A DNA stretch of 63,999 nucleotides, filler included, from Candidatus Babelota bacterium (GCA_017999075.1; 11 parts of 11 records of this genome joined end to end with filler, not necessarily neighbours in it); one strand, 5' to 3'. Shown: positions 189 to 12,093, numbered from the whole stretch's first letter. Numbers and translations are program-made. The notes: generated by a model from the letters alone, not told the origin.

Positions 189-1982
189 ATGTATATTTTA
201 GGAATAAGTTGTTTTTATCATGACTCTGCTGCGGCTATAATAAAAGACGGCAGTCTTATAACCACAGTTCAAGAAGAAAGATTCTCCAGAATAAAAAATG
301 ACGGGGCTTTTCCATCAGCAGCCATTGATTTTTGTCTTAAATCTGCAGGTATCACTTCCAAAGAATTGGATTACGTGGTTTTTTATGAAAAACCTATGCG
401 TAAATTTGACCGCCTGCTTCGAACAATTATAAATTTCTATCCTAAAACATTGAACTTATTTTGTAAATCTATGATTTCAATGATGAAAGAAAAAATATGG
501 ATAAAATATATAATTAACGAAAAACTTGAAGTGCCTCTCGAAAAAATTCTGTTTACAGATCATCATGAATCGCATGCTGCAGCATCTTTTTATTGTTCTC
601 CATTTGAAGATGCCGCAATATTAACTGTTGACGGAGTGGGAGAATGGACAACTGCCGCCTATGGCACCGGACATTCATTCTGGAAAGAAAATTCCGCTGA
701 TAAAAATTATATAAAATTAGAAAAAGAACTCCATTTCCCTATTTCATTAGGATTATTATATTCTGTTATAACAGCATACCTCGGATTTGAAGTTAATGAA
801 GGCGAATATAAAGTAATGGGTATGGCTCCTTACGGAAAACCATTATATACCGAAAAAATAAAAAAAATGCTGAAAATCAAAGACGACGGAAGCTTCACTA
901 TTGACGAATCATATTTGAAATATCATTTTCACACTATGGAATCGTATTCAGAAAAACTCGTTGAACTTTTCGGACCGCCACGCAACAGAAAAGACAGATT
1001 TGTTACAAAACAGACTTCTTTATATGATGATGTAAAACCTGCTACTGAAGAAGAAATGAATAAAAACCAGTATTATGCAGATATTGCGTCAAGTATTCAG
1101 GCTGTTACAGAAGAAATTCTTTTAAAAATGTCTAAGTTTATATTTAAAGAAACAGGTAAAAAAAACCTTTGTATATCAGGCGGAGTCGGATTAAACAGCG
1201 TCGCAAATTTTAAAATACTTAAACAGGCAGGGTTTGAAAATGTCTACATACAGCCTGCTGCCGGAGACGCAGGCGGAGCTCTCGGCGCTGCATTGTTCGC
1301 TTACCATTCTCTTTTAAATAAACCCAGAAAATTCATTATGGAACATTGTTATTGGGGCGAAAAATACAGCGATAATGATATAGAAACATTTTTAAAATCA
1401 AAAAACATCAAATTTCAAAAAATATCGGACGATGAACAATTATTCGATAAAGTTACAGACTTACTTATAAAGGGAAATGTCATTGGATGGTTTCAAAATG
1501 AATTCGAATGGGGGCCGCGGGCTTTAGGAAACAGATCTATTCTCGGAGATCCGAGACGCGAAGATATGAAAGATATAATTAACATTAAAATAAAATTCAG
1601 AGAACCGTTCAGACCTTTTGCTCCTTCAGTTCTTGATGACCGTGCAGAAGAATTTTTTGATTTTGACGGGGTGGAAAAACAATATCCTCCGAGGTTTATG
1701 CTTATGGTATGTCCTGTAAAAAAAGAAAAACACAGCGTTTTGCCTGCAATAACGCATGTTGACGGTTCAGGCAGACTTCAAACAGTAATAAAAAAACACA
1801 ATCCGCGATATTACAGACTCATAGAGCGCTTTGGAGAAAAAACAGGAGTTCCTGTAATTATAAATACGTCATTTAATTTAAAAGGCGAACCTATAGTAAA
1901 TACTCCTGCTAATGCTTATTCAACTTTCAGCAATAGCGGAATGGATGTGCTTGTTTTACAAAACTATCTGATTCTAAAATAA
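189..1982 (+). CDS. Carbamoyltransferase, NodU/CmcH/SxtI family
   Basis: N-terminal ILGISCFYHDSAAA, QEERFSR, HHESHAA, DGVGE, GGVGLN, PAAGDAGGALGAA, EWGPRALGNRSIL, KFREPFRPFAP, HVDGSGRLQTV and NTSFN motifs. Confidence 0.95.
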   Translation: MYILGISCFYHDSAAAIIKDGSLITTVQEERFSRIKNDGAFPSAAIDFCLKSAGITSKELDYVVFYEKPMRKFDRLLRTIINFYPKTLNLFCKSMISMMKEKIWIKYIINEKLEVPLEKILFTDHHESHAAASFYCSPFEDAAILTVDGVGEWTTAAYGTGHSFWKENSADKNYIKLEKELHFPISLGLLYSVITAYLGFEVNEGEYKVMGMAPYGKPLYTEKIKKMLKIKDDGSFTIDESYLKYHFHTMESYSEKLVELFGPPRNRKDRFVTKQTSLYDDVKPATEEEMNKNQYYADIASSIQAVTEEILLKMSKFIFKETGKKNLCISGGVGLNSVANFKILKQAGFENVYIQPAAGDAGGALGAALFAYHSLLNKPRKFIMEHCYWGEKYSDNDIETFLKSKNIKFQKISDDEQLFDKVTDLLIKGNVIGWFQNEFEWGPRALGNRSILGDPRREDMKDIINIKIKFREPFRPFAPSVLDDRAEEFFDFDGVEKQYPPRFMLMVCPVKKEKHSVLPAITHVDGSGRLQTVIKKHNPRYYRLIERFGEKTGVPVIINTSFNLKGEPIVNTPANAYSTFSNSGMDVLVLQNYLILK

Positions 1983-1996
1983 AAGAGGTATTCCTG

Positions 1997-2242
1997 ATGA
2001 TAAATAAATTGAAAGAAAATATCGTATTGCTGATTTTGGTTATAGTATTAGGCGCATTTATTTTTTTTATAATAAAGTTCAGGAAACGTTTTGCAATCAT
2101 TAATGAATTTTTAACATTTTTGTGGAAAGAAAAAATGTGGTGGATGATACCACTTATACTTATACTGCTTGGTATGGGCATACTTATTTTCTTTGCTTCT
2201 TCTTCATCGGCTCTTGCGCCGTTTATTTATCCTTTGTTTTAA
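1997..2242 (+). CDS. DUF5989 / SxtK-like small membrane protein
   Basis: FL.FLW.EK.WW..P...LL..G.L......SALAPFIY.LF C-terminus. Lies directly after the carbamoyltransferase. Confidence 0.8.
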   Translation: MINKLKENIVLLILVIVLGAFIFFIIKFRKRFAIINEFLTFLWKEKMWWMIPLILILLGMGILIFFASSSSALAPFIYPLF

Positions 2243-2328
2243 TATAAAAAATGATTATACATTTTTTTAAATTAAAACTTAAAACCATAAAAATTTTTCA
2301 TTGTTATATTTTAAGGTGAAATAATAAT

Positions 2329-2721
2329 ATGACAAAAACGATTATATTATTAAGCATATCAAATATTTTTATGACATTCGCCTGGTATGGTCATTTAAAA
2401 CATAAAAATTCACCTTTATGGATTGCAATAATAATCAGCTGGCTGATAGCGTTTGTCGAATATTGTTTTCAGGTTCCGGCAAACAGAATCGGCCATAACT
2501 CAGGAATATCTGCAGCTCAATTAAAGATTTTGCAGGAAATAATAACCTTAATAATATTCTGTATTTTTTCAATAATGTATCTCGGCGAAAAAATCAGATG
2601 GAATTATATCGCCGGGTTTATTTTTATTATAATTGCTATTGTATTTGTTTTCTCATTCAATGATATGACTTTCTCCGATTTTCTCAATAAAAACTGGAAT
2701 AGAATAAAAAATATTCTATAA
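2329..2721 (+). CDS. DMT superfamily small membrane protein (DUF486 / DMT_6 type)
   Basis: SNIFMTFAWYGHLK, SWLIAFVEYCFQVPANRIG and QLKILQEIITL signatures. Confidence 0.9.
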   Translation: MTKTIILLSISNIFMTFAWYGHLKHKNSPLWIAIIISWLIAFVEYCFQVPANRIGHNSGISAAQLKILQEIITLIIFCIFSIMYLGEKIRWNYIAGFIFIIIAIVFVFSFNDMTFSDFLNKNWNRIKNIL

Positions 2722-2729
2722 TTAAATTT

Positions 2730-5351
2730 ATGTGTAATATAAAACCAAGCACAGGTATAGAATCACTAGACGGCATATTAAACGGCATACGTTTTGGAGA
2801 TAATATAGTTTGGCAGGTCGATACTATAGAAGATTATATTTCTATAGTCATTCCTTATTGCAGATACGCAAAACAGAACGGAAAAAAAATAGTATATTTC
2901 AGGTTTGCCGACCACAAAGAACTTATATCCGGCGATGAAGATAATGTTATAATTCACAGACTGAATCCGAGAGAAGGGTTTGAGCAATTCATCACAGAGG
3001 TTCACCGAATAATCGAAAAAACAGGAAAATACGGGTTTTACTTGTTTGATTCATATTCTGAACTTACGCTTGACTGCTACAGCGACAGAATGCTTGGAAA
3101 TTTTTTTATACTGACATGCCCGTATTTATATGAACTGGAAACAGTGGCTTATTTTTCAATTTACAGAAATCATCATTCATACCACGCTGTTTTACCTATA
3201 AAACAGACTACTCAGTTATTTATTGACATATATAAATATAATAATGATCTTTACGCCCATCCGTTAAAGGTTGACGGCAGATTTTCATCAACTATGTTTA
3301 TGATGCACAAAAATATAAATGGTATATTCACTCCTATAAAAGACAGTCCGAGCATTTCAGAAGTTTTGAATTCTACTCCCTGGCCCGGACTTCAATCCGC
3401 TTCATACCGTATGATAGGTCCCTGGGACAAAAAATTCATGCAAGCAGAAGCTATGGTGGAAGCTGAAAAAATACAATGCGTATGCAACCCTGAAAATATG
3501 CACAATTATTTTTATAAACTTATGACTTTGCTGATTTCAAAAGAAAAACAGATTCTTGATCTTGCTGATAAATATATTGTCTTGAAAGATATTATATATA
3601 TATGGAAACGAATGATAGGAACAGGCATGATAGGAGGCAAGACAGTAGGTATGCTTCTTGCCCGCGCCATTCTTATAAAAAAAAATCCGAGATGGGAAAA
3701 ATTACTCGAACCGCACGATTCTTTTTTCATAGGATCTGACGTGTTTTATTCCTATCTTGTTTACAACAAGTGCTGGCTTATACGCCAAAAACAGAAAAAA
3801 CAGGAAAGTTTTCTTGAAGATATTGATAAAGCTCAAGACAGAATTTTAAACGGAGAATTTCCGGATTATATAATAAAACGTTTTTCTGATATACTTGATT
3901 ATTACGGACAATCTCCTATCATTGTCAGATCAAGCAGTCTGCTTGAAGATAATTTCGGCAATGCTTTTGCCGGAAAATATGAAAGCGTATTCTGCGCTAA
4001 TCAGGGAGATTTGCAGGATAGATTAAACGAATTTATCAAAGCTGTAAAAATAATTTATGCAAGCGCTATGAGTGAAACCGCATTAAATTACAGAAAAAGA
4101 CGCGGTGTTCTTGAAAAAGACGAACAGATGGCCTTGCTTGTCCAGCGTGTTTCAGGCACACATTATAATGACATGTTTTTTCCGCATTTATCAGGCGTAG
4201 GGTTTTCCTACAATCCTTATGTATGGAACGAAAACATTGATCCTGAAGCAGGAATGATACGTATCGTATTCGGGCTCGGTACACGCGCAGTTGACAGAGC
4301 AGATGACGACTACACAAGAGTTATTGCTTTAAACGCTCCTGATTTAAGACCGGAAGCAGATTTTTCAAAAGTAAAAAAGTATGCCCAGCGCAGATTTGAT
4401 TATATTGATTTGAAAGATAACAAATTTAATTCAGGGTATTTTATTGATATGGTAAAAAAATGTCCTGAACTTCAACCCGAAATGTTCGCAACTCCTGATT
4501 ATGATAATGATTCGTATTATTATGGTGAATATAATAATCAGATAAAACCCTGGGTATTGACATTTGATTCCATATTTCAGGACACTGATTTAATTAATGA
4601 TATAAAAGAAATGTTTAAAATTTTGAAAGAAACTTACAATCAGAACGTTGATGTGGAATTCGCGGTCAACTTCGATAACAATAACGGTTATAAAATAAAC
4701 CTTCTTCAATGCCGGCCTCTTCAAGTAACAAGACAGGATGGAACATATAACGGCGGTTTTGCCGAACCTGATTATAAAGATATAATTTTAAAAACTAATA
4801 GCGGAATTGTCGGACACAGCAGAATTATTCCGATAGATATAATAATTTATGTCGTCCCTGAAATATACGGATTGCTTAATGAAAATGACAGATATTCAAT
4901 AGCCAGGCTTATAGGAAAAATCACTCATAATGTAAATATAAATAACGATAAAAACATTATGATGTTCGGTCCTGGCAGATGGGGAACCAGCATGCCGTCG
5001 CTTGGAGTACCTGTATCATTCAATGAAATAAACAATGTTTCAGTGTTGTGTGAAATAGATTCTATGCACGAAGGATTAGTCCCTGATTTGTCTCTTGGCA
5101 CGCATTTTTTCAACGAAATGGTAGAAATGAATATGCTATATCTTGCATTTTTTAAAAATAAAACAGGAAATTTGATTAACGATAATTTTTTCAATGAAAT
5201 AACAAATAATCTGAATGACATTATGCCTGAAGAAAAAAAATGGGAGCACGCAGTAAAAATAATGTTCACTTCGAAATTATCTGAAAATAAAAAAATATTT
5301 TTAAATGCAGATTCGTTTAAACAAAAATGCATTTTATTTGAAAAAAAATAA
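2730..5351 (+). CDS. PEP/pyruvate-binding (PPDK_N ATP-grasp) domain protein with an N-terminal KaiC/RecA-like region
   Basis: IGGKTVGM, VRSSSLLEDNFGNAFAGKYES, GLGTRAV, DVEFA, LLQCRP and GPGRWG motifs. The N-terminus reads STGIESLDGIL.GI..GDNIVW. Confidence 0.85.
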   Translation: MCNIKPSTGIESLDGILNGIRFGDNIVWQVDTIEDYISIVIPYCRYAKQNGKKIVYFRFADHKELISGDEDNVIIHRLNPREGFEQFITEVHRIIEKTGKYGFYLFDSYSELTLDCYSDRMLGNFFILTCPYLYELETVAYFSIYRNHHSYHAVLPIKQTTQLFIDIYKYNNDLYAHPLKVDGRFSSTMFMMHKNINGIFTPIKDSPSISEVLNSTPWPGLQSASYRMIGPWDKKFMQAEAMVEAEKIQCVCNPENMHNYFYKLMTLLISKEKQILDLADKYIVLKDIIYIWKRMIGTGMIGGKTVGMLLARAILIKKNPRWEKLLEPHDSFFIGSDVFYSYLVYNKCWLIRQKQKKQESFLEDIDKAQDRILNGEFPDYIIKRFSDILDYYGQSPIIVRSSSLLEDNFGNAFAGKYESVFCANQGDLQDRLNEFIKAVKIIYASAMSETALNYRKRRGVLEKDEQMALLVQRVSGTHYNDMFFPHLSGVGFSYNPYVWNENIDPEAGMIRIVFGLGTRAVDRADDDYTRVIALNAPDLRPEADFSKVKKYAQRRFDYIDLKDNKFNSGYFIDMVKKCPELQPEMFATPDYDNDSYYYGEYNNQIKPWVLTFDSIFQDTDLINDIKEMFKILKETYNQNVDVEFAVNFDNNNGYKINLLQCRPLQVTRQDGTYNGGFAEPDYKDIILKTNSGIVGHSRIIPIDIIIYVVPEIYGLLNENDRYSIARLIGKITHNVNINNDKNIMMFGPGRWGTSMPSLGVPVSFNEINNVSVLCEIDSMHEGLVPDLSLGTHFFNEMVEMNMLYLAFFKNKTGNLINDNFFNEITNNLNDIMPEEKKWEHAVKIMFTSKLSENKKIFLNADSFKQKCILFEKK

Positions 5352-5928: not shown

Positions 5929-6028
5929 NNNNNNNNNNNNNNNNNNNNNNNNNNNNNNNNNNNNNNNNNNNNTTAATTAATTAANNNNNNNNNNNNNNNN
6001 NNNNNNNNNNNNNNNNNNNNNNNNNNNN
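5929..6028. other. Artificial contig linker (44N-TTAATTAATTAA-44N)
   Basis: Identical linkers occur at 11932-12031, 17909-18008, 23877-23976, 29837-29936, 35789-35888, 41724-41823, 47645-47744, 53542-53641 and 59431-59530. The 12-mer gives stop codons in all six frames. Confidence 0.98.
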
Positions 6029-6085
6029 ATGAACTTCAATAGCTAATCCGATAATTATATCGCTCAATTCTTTTTCATAAATCAT
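6029..6085 (-). CDS. Second GxxExxY gene copy, 5' fragment only (runs off contig end)
   Basis: 6029-6167 matches 6799-6937 at 138 of 139 positions and encodes MIYEKELSDIIIGLAIEVH with the same AAGGA RBS. Confidence 0.8.
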
Positions 6086-6105
6086 TGTCAATTCCTTTTA
6101 AATTC

Positions 6106-6167
6106 TTGGTGTCTTCGGTGTCCTCGGTGGATAATATTTTTTCCACCGAAAAAGACGAATACACCGA
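6106..6167. repeat. 62-bp imperfect palindrome, copy A (9-bp-periodic TCGGTG/CACCGA arms)
   Basis: TTGGTGTCT TCGGTGTCC TCGGTGGA-taatattttt-TCCACCGA AAAAGACGA ATACACCGA. Perfect 8-bp core stem at 6124-6131/6142-6149. Confidence 0.9.
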
Positions 6168-6276
6168 ATAAATTCTATTCTGTTTTTTTTCTCTGCATTT
6201 TCTTCGTGTTAAAATTATTTTTTTTTTATCACAAAGAATAATACTTTTTATAATCATAAAAACGCAAAAATCATTT

Positions 6277-6303
6277 TCACGCAAAAGCGCGAAGGCAGCA
6301 AAG
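6277..6303. repeat. Degenerate 9-bp tandem repeat (TCACGCAAA AGCGCGAAG GCAGCAAAG)
   Basis: GC-rich three-unit array inside an otherwise very AT-rich spacer. Confidence 0.55.
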
Positions 6304-6382
6304 TTTAAAATAATAATTTTACTTTATTTAGCTTTAAAATTATAATTTTAAATTATCAATATTATAATTTGTCATAATCAGA

Positions 6383-6414
6383 AATTTTCAATTTTTAATT
6401 CTCAATTTTCAATT
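6383..6414. repeat. 7-bp tandem repeat (AATTTTC/AATTCTC), about 4.5 units
   Basis: aattttc aattttt aattctc aattttc aatt, adjacent to palindrome copy B. Confidence 0.7.
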
Positions 6415-6421
6415 GAATTTC

Positions 6422-6484
6422 TCGGTGTTTCTCGGTGTCCTCGGTGGACAATATTTTTTCCACCGAAAAAGACGAATGCACCGA
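6422..6484. repeat. Palindrome copy B, 2 bp downstream of the GxxExxY stop codon
   Basis: TCGGTGTTTC TCGGTGTCC TCGGTGGA-caatattttt-TCCACCGA AAAAGACGA ATGCACCGA. Same orientation as copies A and C. Confidence 0.9.
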
Positions 6485-6486
6485 AA

Positions 6487-6855
6487 TTATAGAACAATCC
6501 TTTTAAATTCTAATTTATTTCTTCCGAAATTTAATATATAATCAACTTTCACTTCGCTTGCTTTTAAATAATTTAATATTTGACTTATATGTTCGGAACA
6601 AATATTGTTTGTTGCTTTTAGTTCTAAAATTATTTTGTTATCAATTAAAAAATCAACATAATATTTTTTGTTAAGGATATGTGTTTTATATTTAATTAAT
6701 AATTCTTTTTGATTTTCAAATTTTATATTATTTTGTTCAAACTCAATAGCTAAAGCTTCTTCATAAACTGCTTCAAGAAATCCTATGCCTAAAGTTTTAT
6801 GAACTTCAATAGCTAATCCGATAATTATATCGCTCAATTCTTTTTCATAAATCAT
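6487..6855 (-). CDS. GxxExxY protein (PD-(D/E)XK nuclease-like)
   Basis: IIGLAIEVHKTLGIGFLEAVYEEAL (GxxExxY), D-FLI...IILELKA, QILNYLK and LNFG motifs. ATG at 6855 with AAGGA RBS; the ORF track starts at a TTG at 6861. Confidence 0.92.
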   Translation of the reverse strand: MIYEKELSDIIIGLAIEVHKTLGIGFLEAVYEEALAIEFEQNNIKFENQKELLIKYKTHILNKKYYVDFLIDNKIILELKATNNICSEHISQILNYLKASEVKVDYILNFGRNKLEFKRIVL

Positions 6856-6875
6856 TGTCAATTCCTTTTAAATTC

Positions 6876-6937
6876 TTGGTGTCTTCGGTGTCCTCGGTGG
6901 ATAATATTTTTTCCACCGAAAAAGATGAATACACCGA
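6876..6937. repeat. Palindrome copy C, abutting the gspE stop codon and preceding the GxxExxY RBS
   Basis: Identical to copy A except for one base (6926). Confidence 0.9.
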
Positions 6938-8377
6938 TTATTTTTCTCTGTGAATAACCCTTGCGAATTCAGAAACAGTCGTTATTCCATTTAATACTTT
7001 TTGTATCCCGTCTTCAAATAATGTTATCATCTGATTTTTTTCTATCGCATATTTTTTTATTTCCTGAATTGAAATGCCTTTTTTTACCATTGTATTTATA
7101 TTCAGATCAAATATTAGTATTTCAAATAATCCGCATCTGCCTTTATAACCTGTCCCGCTGCATTTATCACATCCGCGTCCCTGAAATAACACCGCATTTT
7201 CAAAACTGCGTTTCGCAAGCCGTTCAAGTGTCTTGATTTTTTGCGGCGCAGGTTCTTTACAATGTTCGCACATTTTTCTGACAAGCCGCTGAGAGATAAT
7301 TCCTCTCACAGTATCGGCAATCAGATACGGCGGCAAACCAATATCAACTAACCTCGATAAAGTGCTGACTGTGTCATTCGTATGAATAGTAGATAAAACA
7401 AGATGTCCGGTCAAAGCCGCCTGAATAGCGATTTCCGCTGTTTCAGAATCCCGTATCTCGCCTACCATAATTATATCCGGGTCCTGCCGCAAAAGACTTC
7501 GCAAACCATTGGCAAAAGACAGATTGCGTTTCCGGTTTATCTGCGTCTGATTAATTCCTGGAATTTCATATTCTACAGGATCTTCGATTGTAGCGATTTT
7601 TAATTCAGGACGTTTTATCTTTTGCAATACCGCATACAAAGTCGTGGTTTTTCCGCTTCCAGTAGGTCCCGCAGTCAAAACAACTCCGTGCGTAAATTCC
7701 AATAATTTTTCAAATGCAAGTAAATTGGTTCCCATTACTCCAAGCGAATCTATTGTTATTACCTGCTCGCTCTGGCTCAATAACCTCAAAACCACATTCT
7801 CTCCGTGCATTGTCGGAATAGTCGAAACCCTGATGTCAAATTCAACATTCTCAAGATTTATCTTAACCCTGCCGTCCTGCGGTTTCTGCTGTTCTGCAAT
7901 ATCAAGATTAGCAAATACCTTTATATGCGAAATAATATTTTTCTGTATCTCCTTAGCTATCGACGGCTGCTCAAACAGTATTCCATCAATCCTGTATCTT
8001 ATAATAACCTTTTCTTCAAACGGCTCAATATGTATATCGCTCGCATTTTTATTATAAGCGTTTATCAATATATTTTTTACGCTCGTATAAATGAAATTCT
8101 CTCCGTCCAGTTCCGATTCGCCGTTTCTGTAATTAAAATTTATTTCGGATTTATCGTTGTTTGAATAATTCCCGGTTAAAATATTATTTCCATTCTGCCA
8201 TTTCAAAAATCTCTCATTAAACTCGCTTTCGTCAATAATCTTGAAATCAACTGTTTTCCGATAGTATTTCTCCAGTATTTTCCTAAGATAATATGTTTCA
8301 TCAAGACCATATACGGTTAATGTTTTTGGAGTTTCGTCAGCGGGTATGAGATTATGATTTTTATAGAATGAGTTCAT
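6938..8377 (-). CDS. GspE/PulE/PilB-family secretion ATPase
   Basis: ASDIHIEP, PQDGR, Walker A GPTGSGKTTTLY, TIEDPVEY, LRQDPDIIMVGEIRD, TGHLVLSTIHTN, and CxxC pairs (CEHC, CDKC). Confidence 0.93.
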   Translation of the reverse strand: MNSFYKNHNLIPADETPKTLTVYGLDETYYLRKILEKYYRKTVDFKIIDESEFNERFLKWQNGNNILTGNYSNNDKSEINFNYRNGESELDGENFIYTSVKNILINAYNKNASDIHIEPFEEKVIIRYRIDGILFEQPSIAKEIQKNIISHIKVFANLDIAEQQKPQDGRVKINLENVEFDIRVSTIPTMHGENVVLRLLSQSEQVITIDSLGVMGTNLLAFEKLLEFTHGVVLTAGPTGSGKTTTLYAVLQKIKRPELKIATIEDPVEYEIPGINQTQINRKRNLSFANGLRSLLRQDPDIIMVGEIRDSETAEIAIQAALTGHLVLSTIHTNDTVSTLSRLVDIGLPPYLIADTVRGIISQRLVRKMCEHCKEPAPQKIKTLERLAKRSFENAVLFQGRGCDKCSGTGYKGRCGLFEILIFDLNINTMVKKGISIQEIKKYAIEKNQMITLFEDGIQKVLNGITTVSEFARVIHREK

Positions 8378-8379
8378 AG

Positions 8380-11300
8380 TTAATTCATTTTCCTTTCATA
8401 CATAAACATCAGCAGACCCAAATCTCTGCGTATATCGTCGATTTCAGCGCCTTCGAGTTTTTGGATGTCGCGTATGATACGGCCTAACCGTTCGATTTTG
8501 TAAAGTATCTGCGAGTTAGTGTTTTCAGGACGATTGCGCAGATATTGTAAATCATTTATTGCGCGATCGATTATGCGTAAATCCTGATATGACAAAACTT
8601 CAAAACTGCTGCCGCCTTCGAGCAGGTATATTTGTACCGGTAAAATATTATTTCCGGTTATCGTAATCAATGAACCGTTTGAAAGTCCTGTAAAATCCGC
8701 TATTCTGACGCGGTTGCGCCGGAATACCTGAACACGAGACGCTTCGCCTGAGTATTTCAAAGTGATTGATGTAAGTTCGCGCCAGCCCCAGCAGCGATTG
8801 TGATGCGGATGTTTGTATGTAAGCGCAATAATTTCGAATGCGCCGAATTTATCGCCGATTTTTAATTTTTTGCCATAAGTTTTGATGCGCGTTACATCAT
8901 CGAAATTAGGCAGATTTTCAAGATTTGAGATTATATAATCATAACTTGTAGCATAATCAAAATCTATTGATATTTCCGCTTTCAAATTATTAAAAGGAGG
9001 ATGAGTAAAATAATTTCCATGTAGCAGATATTCGAGTCTGCCTGATATTTCATACTCGCCTGCTGTTAAAGGCATATTCAATATTGCCCTGAATTCAGTT
9101 TCGGAATCCTTTGCAATTTGAGATTGAGTTATATATGAAATTTCATCGGCTGACAATGTTCCTCTGTCAAGTATCTGTTTGATTTCAAAACCTTCCGGCA
9201 GCATTTTAACGCCTAATAATTGTAGAGGCATTATTTTCGGCGACGCTGTTATTACGCTTAAAATTTCCGAACCGCTGAATGCGGCTGCGTTATCAGGTCT
9301 AATATAATCAATACTTCTGCGAATAAAATTTGAAATTATATTATATGTCGCGCTTTCCAGAACTGCAGACAAATCAAACGCGAAATAAACCGTTTTTCCT
9401 TCGCCGAATGAATTCATTAATATTACAGGCGATTGATTGCTGACAGGAGTTACATCAATAATTTTTATGTCTCCGTCAATTATATCTCCTGGCTCTACTG
9501 TGGAATGCGATGTTCCCGAAGTATTGATTGATTCGTCAAATATTTTATGGTTCGCAATATCATAAACCTTGATTTTGGTTGTTGAATTTAATACTTCGTC
9601 AGGAAGTTTGGTTCCGTCGATTGTAAAATCAAAAGGTCCGATGCCTTCTACTGAATCGAATATTGAAGCACCTGAACTTAATTCTATTCTTACAGTATCG
9701 CCGTTTGTATTAGGCAGGTATTTACAGTCAACAAACACTATTCCGCTTGGAGCCGGATTCAGTTCGCAAAAACCGCCCGCCTGCGCCGCGGTGTATGCGG
9801 ACAACTGAACCTTATACACTTCGCCTTGAACAGTCATACTTCCCGCTTCTGTAACAGGAGTAGATACAAGATTCATCAGCCTGTCGTTTTCGCTGCGCAT
9901 TTTATTATTGATTTTCGCGCCGTAAAAATCATATCCTTTCGAAGGTTGAGTATATGTATGATGGCGGTAACGCCATTTGCGCTGACGCAGACAATCTGCC
10001 GCTATATCCTTAAACATACTGCCGATAAATCCGCCGCCTGCGTAAATATGCTCGCGTATTTCGTCTTCCTCGTATTCTGAAAATCTATTGTGTTCGCCGA
10101 GTATCATCATCATATCATAACTGTTTGAACGCAATTTTTTTAAAAATTCGTCTTTGTCTTGTACAATTGCATACCCAGGTATTTTCAGTGAATTCATTAT
10201 ATTTGAGATCAAATCTTCCGGCACGATTTTATAACCGTTATCAACCTTCACTTTCAGATTATTTCCCTGTTTCTGATAATTAAGCCACACTAATAATTTT
10301 CCTGAACTTGTTATTGAAATATCTCCGGCCAATGCGTCTATCATTGTAAACTGTCTTGAATATTCAGGACTTAAGTTTCCAAGCATATCAACGGCTTTAT
10401 ATTGTAATGTTACAATACCGCTGTCTATATTTGAAATTGTAAACGGTAAATCGTATTCAAGATATTCTCCATCATTTATTTTATAATATATTTGATCAAT
10501 GCCTGCTCCGGTTCCGCTGTCTATGGCTGTAATTGTGAACCTGCTTTCTTTAATAATTTCTGTTTGCGAATCATTTGAATATTCGATTGACAAAAGAAGA
10601 AGAGGAACAGTTTTATCCACAATGATATTTACATTGTTCCAATCTTCAATGTTTTTTGAAATATCAATTGAACGGTATTTGAATGTATGTGCGCCAGTAC
10701 TCCATCCGCCAGTTCCCTTAACATTGCACTCAGTAGTCTGCACTGCAATTATTGTACTATCATCAATACTGTATTCTATCCCGAAGACTCCTGATAAAAC
10801 GTCCGTGCATTTTATTATGATTTGCGTTGAATCGTTGATAAATACAGGGTTTGTACCGTATTTCGGTTCGGAGATCAGAATTTCAGAAACAGATTTTGTA
10901 AGATCAATATTAATATTGTCCACCGAAGACACCGAGGTATTACCGGCTAAATCTGTAGCTATCCACTCTGCATTTTGCCCTTTGCCTTCAATCAGAATTC
11001 TATATTCTGAACTCTGCGTCATTCCACTTAAAGCATCACTCGCGCTGAATGCTACCTGAACATTTTGGTTAAACCAAATATTTTCTGACGGATAAACAAG
11101 TGCCCAATTTTCAGTATCTGTACTCTGTATTCTGCACTTTGAGCTAATTACAGGCGCAGTTTTATCAATATTAATTTTATCCACCGAAATCACCGAGGTA
11201 TTACCAGCTAAATCCTGCGCAATCCACGACGCTGACTGATTTGAACCCTCTGATGATAAAATAATTTCTTTAGTGTATTCCATCAGTCCTGATAGATCTG

Positions 11301-11931
11301 AAGCGGTAAATATAACTTTTATATTTCCATTAAACCAAATATTTTCCGCCGGCTGCGCTACAAACCATTCTCCGTCCTTTGCGCTCTGCGCTTTATACTC
11401 TGCAATGATTACAGGCGCAGTTTTGTCAATGTTTATGTTATCCACTGAGAACACCGAGGTATTTCCAGCTAAGTCTTGCGCTATCCACAACGCTGATTGA
11501 TTCGCGCCTTCATTTGCCAACATTATAACCTTCGAACTTTCCACCACTCCAGTTGCATCGCTTGCCGTAAACGTTACTCTTACGTCTTTATTAAACCAGG
11601 TATTTTCAGCAGGCTGAACTGCCTGCCAGTCTACATTCTCTGCGTCCTGTACGCTGCACTCTGCACTTATCGCTGGCTCAGTCTTATCTATCGTAAACGA
11701 TACGCTCTCGCTCGTCGTATTTCCCGCTAAATCAGTAGCTGTCAATATCGTTGTGTAATTTCCTTCGTTTATAAAAATCGTATCGCCTGATACTACGCAT
11801 TCCTCATTAACCGAATAACTTAAAATCACATCTTGATTAGTCGGCGTAACAACAGAAATAATCGTTAATACAGGCGCTGTCTTATCAATATTAATTTTAT
11901 CCACTGAGAACACCGAGGTATTTCCAGCTAA
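8380..11931 (-). CDS. Large extracellular protein with tandem Ig-like repeats and a C-terminal amidotransferase-like (Rossmann-type) region; 5' end cut by contig edge
   Basis: Repeated IDKTAP...WFN..V.V.F.ASD..G....EG.NQS..W.A.DLAGN units and OmpL47-like Y.IDD/Y.IND repeats. The frame is open to the contig edge. Confidence 0.8.
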   Translation of the reverse strand, partial: LAGNTSVFSVDKINIDKTAPVLTIISVVTPTNQDVILSYSVNEECVVSGDTIFINEGNYTTILTATDLAGNTTSESVSFTIDKTEPAISAECSVQDAENVDWQAVQPAENTWFNKDVRVTFTASDATGVVESSKVIMLANEGANQSALWIAQDLAGNTSVFSVDNINIDKTAPVIIAEYKAQSAKDGEWFVAQPAENIWFNGNIKVIFTASDLSGLMEYTKEIILSSEGSNQSASWIAQDLAGNTSVISVDKINIDKTAPVISSKCRIQSTDTENWALVYPSENIWFNQNVQVAFSASDALSGMTQSSEYRILIEGKGQNAEWIATDLAGNTSVSSVDNINIDLTKSVSEILISEPKYGTNPVFINDSTQIIIKCTDVLSGVFGIEYSIDDSTIIAVQTTECNVKGTGGWSTGAHTFKYRSIDISKNIEDWNNVNIIVDKTVPLLLLSIEYSNDSQTEIIKESRFTITAIDSGTGAGIDQIYYKINDGEYLEYDLPFTISNIDSGIVTLQYKAVDMLGNLSPEYSRQFTMIDALAGDISITSSGKLLVWLNYQKQGNNLKVKVDNGYKIVPEDLISNIMNSLKIPGYAIVQDKDEFLKKLRSNSYDMMMILGEHNRFSEYEEDEIREHIYAGGGFIGSMFKDIAADCLRQRKWRYRHHTYTQPSKGYDFYGAKINNKMRSENDRLMNLVSTPVTEAGSMTVQGEVYKVQLSAYTAAQAGGFCELNPAPSGIVFVDCKYLPNTNGDTVRIELSSGASIFDSVEGIGPFDFTIDGTKLPDEVLNSTTKIKVYDIANHKIFDESINTSGTSHSTVEPGDIIDGDIKIIDVTPVSNQSPVILMNSFGEGKTVYFAFDLSAVLESATYNIISNFIRRSIDYIRPDNAAAFSGSEILSVITASPKIMPLQLLGVKMLPEGFEIKQILDRGTLSADEISYITQSQIAKDSETEFRAILNMPLTAGEYEISGRLEYLLHGNYFTHPPFNNLKAEISIDFDYATSYDYIISNLENLPNFDDVTRIKTYGKKLKIGDKFGAFEIIALTYKHPHHNRCWGWRELTSITLKYSGEASRVQVFRRNRVRIADFTGLSNGSLITITGNNILPVQIYLLEGGSSFEVLSYQDLRIIDRAINDLQYLRNRPENTNSQILYKIERLGRIIRDIQKLEGAEIDDIRRDLGLLMFMYERKMN

Positions 11932-12093
11932 NNNNNNNNNNNNNNNNNNNNNNNNNNNNNNNNNNNNNNNNNNNNTTAATTAATTAANNNNNNNNNNNNN
12001 NNNNNNNNNNNNNNNNNNNNNNNNNNNNNNNGTTTGAGTTTACCAGTTTTTGAAGTTCTGATATTAAAGCAAATCAGAATTTGCTAAAAAATA

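Follow-up and report, generated by a model that had tools for sequence, protein, structure and literature searches.

The window analyzed in this report is a 63,999-nucleotide (nt) stretch of DNA from Candidatus Babelota bacterium (GCA_017999075.1). It consists of separate contigs (C389-C398 and C492) strung together with N linkers (at 5929-6028, 11932-12031 and further on, as N runs around TTAATTAATTAA), and adjacent pieces are not neighbours in the genome. The assembly consists of 594 contigs, with 3.83 Mb in total and a G+C content of 30.2%, and part of the stretch is present in nine public runs from wastewater, activated-sludge, digester and groundwater metagenomes. Our subject is a short motif on contig C390 (window positions 6029-11931) that occurs both in the immunoglobulin (Ig)-like repeats of a giant surface-protein gene and in the hairpin arms of nearby GxxExxY cassettes. 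Contig C390 starts inside a GxxExxY gene and ends inside Ig repeats, and both ends are therefore assembly breaks at repeats.

The open frame at 8380-11931 (minus strand) holds the C-terminal 1183 codons of the Ig gene, which the contig end truncates. Another 1241 codons, from the front of the gene, are on contig C567, where their open frame ends in the same repeats; the surface protein is thus at least about 2,400 residues long. Directly after the Ig gene is a gene for a GspE/PilB-type secretion ATPase (T2SSE) at 6938-8377 (minus strand; PF00437, E 7e-128). Copy B of the GxxExxY (PDDEXK_3) gene, at 6487-6861 (minus strand), encodes 124 amino acids and belongs to this family by both PF13366 (E 6e-38; 130.2 bits, cut-off 22) and TIGR04256 (E 1e-39; 135.2 bits, cut-off 35). 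Copy A, at 6029-6091 (minus strand), is represented by its first 21 codons and is cut by the contig start, with the rest probably at the end of contig C83. Hairpin arm elements, listed here without strand, are located upstream of gene B between it and the T2SSE gene (6874-6937), downstream of gene B (6419-6485) and upstream of the partial copy A (6104-6168). The element at 6419-6485 consists of three CTCGGTG words, GGA, an A+T loop and inverted words, and its predicted RNA fold has a free energy of -28.3 kcal/mol (z -4.2). In this genome we define an arm as at least two copies of a single heptamer word spaced by 9-10 nt, the last of which runs into GGA and an A+T stretch, with an inverted copy within about 60 nt; it is intergenic, either flush with a GxxExxY gene or without any gene. 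The function of GxxExxY (PDDEXK_3) is listed as unknown (PMC3424549), and a literature search by family name (GxxExxY, PF13366) found no paper on repeat arms.

Contig C83 very probably adjoins C390, because the 3' part of a GxxExxY gene is found at the end of C83 and a 5' part at the start of C390, and both align to copy B. The end of C83 differs from copy B and its arm by 5 mismatches in 289 aligned nt, the start of C390 differs from copy B by 1 mismatch in 139 aligned nt, and the gap left between the two contig ends is about 90 nt. Beyond its cassette part, C83 carries a secretin gene (1029-2771, minus strand; PF00263, E 5e-40). The order on one strand is therefore probably the giant Ig protein, the GspE-like ATPase, two tandem GxxExxY cassettes with four arms, and the secretin, so that the two cassettes would be situated between the ATPase and secretin genes of a single secretion operon.

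A first, sequence-only reading of the window had reported that positions 10912-10936, within the Ig gene, match the reverse complement of intergenic 6431-6455 at 24 of 25 bases. This match was reproduced (BLAST E 9e-5), and the arm on C83 is closer still, matching 10912-10936 at 25 of 25 positions, which include the 3-nt spacer and 7 nt outside the core. The 18-nt core, CTCGGTGNNNTCRGTGGA (CTCGGTG-N3-TCRGTGGA), has four in-frame, minus-strand copies in the Ig open reading frame (ORF), with 0 mismatches in each, and it also occurs in three cassette arms, at 6114-6131, 6431-6448 and 6884-6901. All four coding copies are in the frame of 8380-11931 and read NTSV[FIS]SVD[KN]I, with the codons ACC TCG GTG nnn TCR GTG GAY. 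Copy r4 (10912-10936, core at 10919-10936, minus strand) is written ACC TCG GTG TCT TCG GTG GAC AAT ATT; copy r3 (11180-11197, minus strand), TCG GTG ATT TCG GTG GAT; and copies r2 (11441-11458, minus strand) and r1 (11900-11917, minus strand, 14 nt from the contig end), both TCG GTG TTC TCA GTG GAT. A fifth, near copy on contig C567 has TCT as its second Ser codon. The position that varies between TCG and TCA in the coding copies is the one that varies among arms (TCGGTG or TCAGTG), and the four window copies fit the arm pattern CTCGGTG-N3-TCRGTGGA followed by YAAWAT. Arm and gene are alike over 25 nt only and have nothing in common beyond. The four arms of exactly this subtype are all at one locus, 4-5 kb downstream of the motif copies and in the same orientation. 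Hairpins with TCGGTG words are also present in another genus of the same family, which is without this Ig gene, and the arms are therefore not copies of the Ig gene.

The core is far more frequent in the window than composition predicts, with 7 matches as against 0.04 expected, and none of 100 shuffles reached 7. Over the whole assembly, the looser pattern [CT]TCRGTG-N3-TCRGTGGA occurs 12 times, of which 8 are hairpin arms and 4 are in the Ig gene; similarly, the 37 word pairs of the form TCRGTG-N3-4-TCRGTG comprise 33 hairpin elements and the 4 in the Ig gene. The single word TCGGTG is not enriched genome-wide (390 seen, 358 expected). A general motif of the uptake or Chi type was considered and rejected, because single words are not enriched.

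Codon usage was addressed with two null models, along the lines of the codon-shuffled control that the sequence-only reading had called for. Of 30 genomes in which synonymous codons were shuffled within each gene (2746 ORFs), none contained the strict core and 2 contained the loose one; when codons were resampled from genome usage, the corresponding counts were 0 and 2 of 60. Since the four or five copies are paralogues, they were counted as one event, and the probability of a chance occurrence per genome is then about 0.01-0.03 for the core; for the exact 25-mer it is smaller. Exact sharing of 20-mers between intergenic and coding DNA was dropped as a null, because overlaps of contig ends dominate it; it also missed the motif case, since the C83 arm falls in a spurious long ORF. 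Sequence matching alone does not settle the choice between a signal and a coincidence.

The motif encodes a normal element of the protein, the final beta-strand of a young subfamily of Ig-like repeats that we call type A. A single repeat modelled with AlphaFold2 is all-beta with six strands, at a predicted local distance difference test (pLDDT) score of 86.6, and is an Ig-like repeat of the Big_13 or Big_3 type; the motif forms its last strand (residues 78-88), in agreement with the placement first proposed from sequence. No match at E <= 0.001 was found when this model was compared with the PDB by Foldseek. Profile matches in the gene product include an OmpL47-type barrel domain (104.7 bits) and Big_13, which scores 45.1 bits on the C567 part, above the cut-off of 27, and only 21.9-22.1 bits on the window part, below it. 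Type A is represented by three complete repeats, each about 93 codons long and ending in the motif, at 10891-11169, 11152-11430 and 11413-11691 (together 10891-11691, minus strand). At 11674-11889 (minus strand) is a short type B repeat of 72 codons, whose strand GNTTSESVSF near 11710 is without the motif, as had been observed before. The type B strand is also rich in G/C-ending codons (ACG, AGC, TCG). The spacing from GN to INID in the last strand is 8 residues in the motif-bearing repeats, in a diverged, motif-less type A repeat (GNMSYLKIENINID) and in homologues from Chloroflexota. In the latter the strand reads SVDNINIDKTAP, and also GNVTNLSVDNINIDKTAP and GNTASAKVENINIDLTAP, and its codons differ from those of the motif. 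SVDNINID is, by this comparison of sequences, an old protein motif that the Chloroflexota homologues write with other codons.

In the collection searched for the Ig gene, only 4 species genomes represent the phylum, and the search did not find the gene in the 3 besides the present one. Within a set of 40 other genomes, two yielded matches, both weak and partial (28-33% identity in portions of the protein, E 5e-13 to 8e-6). The species-genome collection yielded 2 remote Chloroflexota relatives from 246 candidate stretches, and the metagenome collection yielded at least 44 loci from 594 candidate stretches. Among the matches listed from both collections (46 loci), the motif is present only in a metagenome contig designated L025.

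The codons of the motif are rare in this genome, as the first reading had supposed for its TCG-GTG pairs: in 1816 long ORFs, TCG accounts for 9.1% of Ser codons, GTG for 10.6% of Val codons and ACC for 11.6% of Thr codons. The four full type A repeats are mutually 57-70% identical in protein, and they share 22 columns in which a conserved residue has at least threefold codon degeneracy. One codon is kept throughout in 6 of these 22 columns, and 4 of the 6 are the ACC, TCG, GTG and GTG of the motif, all of them rare, G/C-ending codons. Fixed columns thus make up 4 of 5 within the motif and 2 of 17 elsewhere (hypergeometric p 0.009). Together with the codon identity of the motif windows in L025, described next, this makes them a conserved rare-codon cluster.

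The comparison with L025 covers 3.5 kb of its 4.5 kb. The two Ig genes have 75.9% amino acid and 76.6% nucleotide identity over 1084 codons, and the same codon is used at 62.8% of 801 identical degenerate residues. Both type A junctions of L025 carry the motif. In two 12-codon motif windows that were set in advance, 11 of 12 and 12 of 12 codons are identical between the genes, which has an arithmetic probability of about 3e-4 at a background of 0.64. Fully identical 12-codon windows number 21 among 935, and 20 of the 21 are at the two motif junctions. The longest run of identical nucleotides, 69 nt (10903-10971, minus strand), contains r4, and the second longest, 57 nt (11140-11196, minus strand), contains r3; the next runs are 38, 32 and 26 nt. 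In blocks picked after inspection, 55 of 57 codons are identical, compared with 430 of 702 elsewhere.

Several further comparisons bear on the cause of this conservation. In the stretch between the two blocks, 24 of 33 codons are the same, which is near average, and the blocks are therefore not one long recent tract. The differences between r3 and r4 are identical in the two genomes, so homogenisation among repeats is not the cause. As a control, the B' junction, which is equally conserved in protein and has no motif, exhibits ordinary drift (57 of 106 codons the same). The structure of the junction messenger RNA (mRNA) is no better than that of shuffles (z -1.2 to +0.8 in 5 folds) and does not explain the blocks. 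An overlapping gene on the opposite strand was also rejected, because ORFs of at least 60 amino acids cover r4 and r2, but not r3, and leave the shared constraint unexplained. Judged from these alignments, the nucleotides of the motif look constrained, having been kept while neighbouring synonymous sites drifted. The two genomes also differ in repeat number, with two type A repeats in the compared part of L025 and five in this genome.

In addition to encoding protein, the DNA of the strand carries the word code of one arm of the cassettes: TCRGTG, 3 nt, TCRGTGGA and an A+T stretch. We read the motif as a nucleic-acid signal overlaid on coding sequence, rather than as an inserted repeat, and that it is a selected signal related to the cassette arms seems to us somewhat the more probable case. 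How such a signal would act is a separate question, on which we are more tentative; that the motif works as a DNA half-site, or as a starter of recombination, is a serious possibility to which we assign less than an even chance. Under this proposal, the motif copies would be half-sites for a factor that reads the heptamer words in the arms, which could be the GxxExxY nuclease itself or one of its partners. Binding or nicking at the half-sites might start short recombination or repair tracts, so that lineages would remain alike over about 60-70 nt at each site, and the half-sites could favor the in-register gain or loss of Ig repeats. We prefer the half-site reading because it alone covers both the identical tracts, which include the motif and extend to different sides of it, and the difference in repeat number. 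A bolder version, which we regard as doubtful, has the word code read in trans: the host operon would have written half-sites for the resident cassette at synonymous positions into the Ig junctions of its adhesin, and nicking by the cassette nuclease would drive the in-register gain, loss and exchange of surface domains, so that a selfish cassette would have been co-opted as a programmable engine of variation.

A considerable number of observations weigh against these proposals. The coding copies have no inverted CACCGA partner nearby and so do not form a hairpin as cassette arms do, and they are therefore half-sites at best; moreover, they are situated within an open frame of 1183 codons, at a distance of 4-5 kb from the cassettes. 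Three of the five copies encode their second Ser by TCA, TCA and TCT, so that a perfect second word is not required. Among the other word families of this genome, only sporadic pairs of 6-mers occur in ORFs. The evidence is confined to one locus and one orthologue, the conserved blocks (as distinct from the 12-codon windows) were delimited after the data had been seen, and these blocks, at about 60-70 nt, exceed any single binding site. The sequence matches of the nuclease are weak, the best being T7 endonuclease I at E 0.27, and a fold search with the GxxExxY model (pLDDT 64) found no match at E 0.001, with weak ones to Cas4 and Hjc resolvases. Should such a fold recognize the shape of DNA instead of words, it would not act on a half-site in plain duplex DNA. 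A genome of the same genus (G001) has 9 PDDEXK_3 matches and contains neither this arm type nor the Ig gene.

No recombination breakpoint was seen at the motif. The suggestion of the sequence-only reading that the copies are in-frame sites through which the GxxExxY system could duplicate or shuffle domains is upheld only in part: the match goes beyond codon usage and the nucleotides look constrained, but no joint at the motif was found in Logan contigs of four public runs over the whole contig, which are short (151-2018 nt), break at repeats and are usable neither for nor against. Support is poor for joints at 11502>11585/11588 and at 6414>6878, whose sequence resembles that of paralogues or of foreign DNA. 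Both of the long identical tracts (69 and 57 nt) include the motif, but the first type A repeat of L025 is a mosaic whose closest relative in this genome switches in mid-domain, not at the motif. Among 20 other cassette loci, taken from 7 genomes together with flanks of up to 9 kb, no word pair was found in a clear gene; the word-finding rule is crude, finding words at 11 of the 20 loci and none at 9, several of which visibly have imperfect words. One ambiguous word pair, at a locus of 60% G+C, looks like a neighbouring pair of arms.

The alternative that survives best is coincidence combined with an unrelated codon constraint, such as a rare-codon cluster that slows translation at the end of a domain, in which case T-S-V-x-S-V-D merely happens to spell the commonest local heptamer word. 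It is a serious rival, in our view only slightly less probable than the half-site reading, and there is much in its favor. The loose core appeared in 2 of 30 and 2 of 60 codon controls. A very large amount of DNA was screened, in which a core match at such odds arises somewhere by accident, and a pair is noticeable only when both members are within one window. Coding DNA with a three-residue period can mimic 9-nt word arrays, as illustrated by AT-rich words in several repeat genes and by the repeat gene on contig C341, which matches an AT-rich arm at 23 of 25 positions, a chance level. The phenomenon was seen at 0 of the 11 informative other cassette loci, the codons concerned are the rare ones enumerated above, and the type B strand likewise uses many G/C-ending codons. 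Finally, position-specific conservation of rare codons is described in the literature (PMC5438181). Opposed to this, the best pair is exact at 25 of 25 positions, spacer and outer 7 nt included, and the sole gene with word pairs is 4-5 kb from the sole locus with that arm subtype. The rare synonymous codons are also never swapped for one another, the same codon being kept each time, and identical runs of 57-69 nt far exceed a rare-codon cluster.

In another alternative, which we judge to be quite improbable, the signal acts by RNA pairing. A transcript of the arm would be complementary to the motif in the Ig mRNA, and a duplex of at most 25 bp, formed within the operon transcript or in trans, would guide cleavage of the adhesin mRNA or alter its translation. 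The two genes share the minus strand, with the arm sequence on the strand opposite to the motif, an orientation that nonetheless has a 1-in-2 chance of arising. The predicted duplexes (5 copies by 4 arms) have free energies of -30 to -55 kcal/mol, compared with shuffled means of -17 to -20 and same-sense values of -21 to -30, but the arms fold on themselves at -24 to -29 kcal/mol, and pairing is imperfect for 4 of the 5 copies. Intervening sequences of 23S ribosomal RNA (rRNA) that bear ORFs are excised by RNase III. These sequences, the closest described elements, belong to the RNA level (PMC4990558). Pairing would also cover 25 nt rather than the blocks of 57-69 nt, and the element directly after the L025 gene has other words.

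Improbable to much the same degree, or slightly more so, is a footprint without function, in which recent short recombination tracts, between co-habiting lineages or between arm and gene, made the stretches alike in the absence of selection. The identical blocks are indeed short and sharply bounded within diverged DNA, and the mosaic first type A repeat of L025 fits such events. However, two separate tracts would each need to cover the motif, the copy-specific differences of r3 and r4, being the same in both genomes, leave no homogenisation among repeats, and the first word is unchanged in 5 of 5 paralogues that otherwise have 57-70% protein identity and many synonymous differences. The confinement of the likeness between arm and gene to 25 nt is a further difficulty. 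The last alternative, also raised by the sequence-only reading, is an inserted cassette arm that was domesticated as coding sequence, and it can practically be set aside, because the strand has the same length (8 residues, GN-INID) in the motif-less type A repeat and in the Chloroflexota homologues, where the old SVDNINID motif is written with other codons, and the gene contains no inverted arm half.

The selected-signal reading can be compared with several known systems. The shufflon of plasmid R64 has short sfx sites in the pilV gene that are read by the Rci recombinase; such sites are in frame in a surface or pilus protein gene beside secretion or pilus genes, and they alter the make-up of the protein. 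The present motif copies are likewise in frame in a surface-protein gene next to secretion genes, but they are all direct repeats without inverted sites. No tyrosine recombinase is present among the ORFs of C390 (Ig, GspE-like and GxxExxY), the rest of the genome not having been searched for recombinases. In the system of repetitive extragenic palindromic (REP) sequences, REPINs and RAYTs, a small gene for an enzyme is bordered by short palindromes, the repeat sequence is specific to each copy of the gene, and there are copies without a gene, as is also the case here (PMC3116915 and PMC3337134). The enzyme of the present cassettes is, however, of the PD-(D/E)XK fold (PDDEXK_3) and not a Y1 transposase, although no search aimed at RAYT was made. 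We know of no in-frame REP half-site within a gene that synonymous constraint maintains.

The 23S rRNA intervening sequences of Coxiella, with their S23p ORF, resemble the cassettes in having a small ORF between inverted hairpin arms inside a host transcript (PMC4990558). The cassettes here differ in being outside rRNA and in having an ORF of a different family, and the available part of that source describes no arm copy inside a protein-coding repeat. Conserved rare-codon clusters have rare synonymous codons kept at the same place in homologues near the end of a domain (PMC5438181). Those in the Ig gene do the same, but they exactly spell the arm of a neighbouring mobile element, and the identical DNA extends over 57-69 nt.

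If the link is real, the words would be read by a factor acting at a distance from the cassette, a signal hidden at synonymous sites would be common to a mobile cassette and a surface-protein gene of its host, and variation in the domain number of a secreted adhesin may be steered. The locus offers a testable pair of substrates, namely the hairpin of a complete arm and a half-site that occurs naturally in double-stranded coding DNA, for which synonymous recoding provides a control. If the link is not real, the locus nonetheless provides a clear case of strong synonymous constraint at the junctions of Ig domains, and a warning that coding DNA with a 9-nt period can mimic repeat arms.

Other cassettes of this genome have words of their own. 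The GxxExxY genes on contigs C589, C372, C233, C482, C137, C184 and C253 have hairpin arms that are each made of one heptamer word particular to the gene, namely CGCGAAG, ACGAAT, CACGAAC, CAGGATA, CACCGAA, CGCGAAT and CACAAAG, respectively, and the proteins of these seven contigs are only 33-46% identical. This pairing of words with proteins, as read from the sequences, fits a protein that reads its own words. Hairpin copies without a gene also occur elsewhere in the genome.

Coding DNA with arm-like periodicity was found in several places. The surface-protein gene at C341 1200-4400 has repeats of 378 nt (126 residues), broken by an N run, and in its NLTNLTN stretch 23 of 25 positions agree with the arm of the C372 cassette that is built of ACGAAT words (E 0.02, about chance level). 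At window 6385-6418, beside the arm, an A+T-rich word array (AATTTTCAATTTTTAATTCTCAATTTTCAATTG) matches coding DNA of several giant repeat genes, at 24 of 25 positions in C211, at 25 of 27 four times in C341, and also in C280 and C349. The matches of this array probably reflect composition and periodicity rather than homology.

The L025 locus differs from the present one in several respects. Its repeat order is B' B' A A in the compared part, whereas that of this genome is B' A B A ... B A A A (L025 1-260 compared with C567 2988-3215), and its linker reads QITQITQI where this genome has IDKTAPAISAEC. Immediately downstream of its Ig gene, at L025 3275-3325, is a perfect 14-bp hairpin (GGTTAGCGGTTAAG ... 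CTTAACCGCTAACC) followed by AACC-type words, in the place where this genome has the ATPase gene; this hairpin is possibly a different cassette arm.

Finally, base composition varies across C390. The G+C content is 38-40% in the Ig gene and 37% in the ATPase gene (together, the context of window 6938-11931), compared with 30% for the genome and 22% for the GxxExxY gene. The codons GCG, ACG, GGC and CTG are strongly over-used in the Ig gene, and on these compositional grounds the operon may be foreign or under a codon regime of its own.

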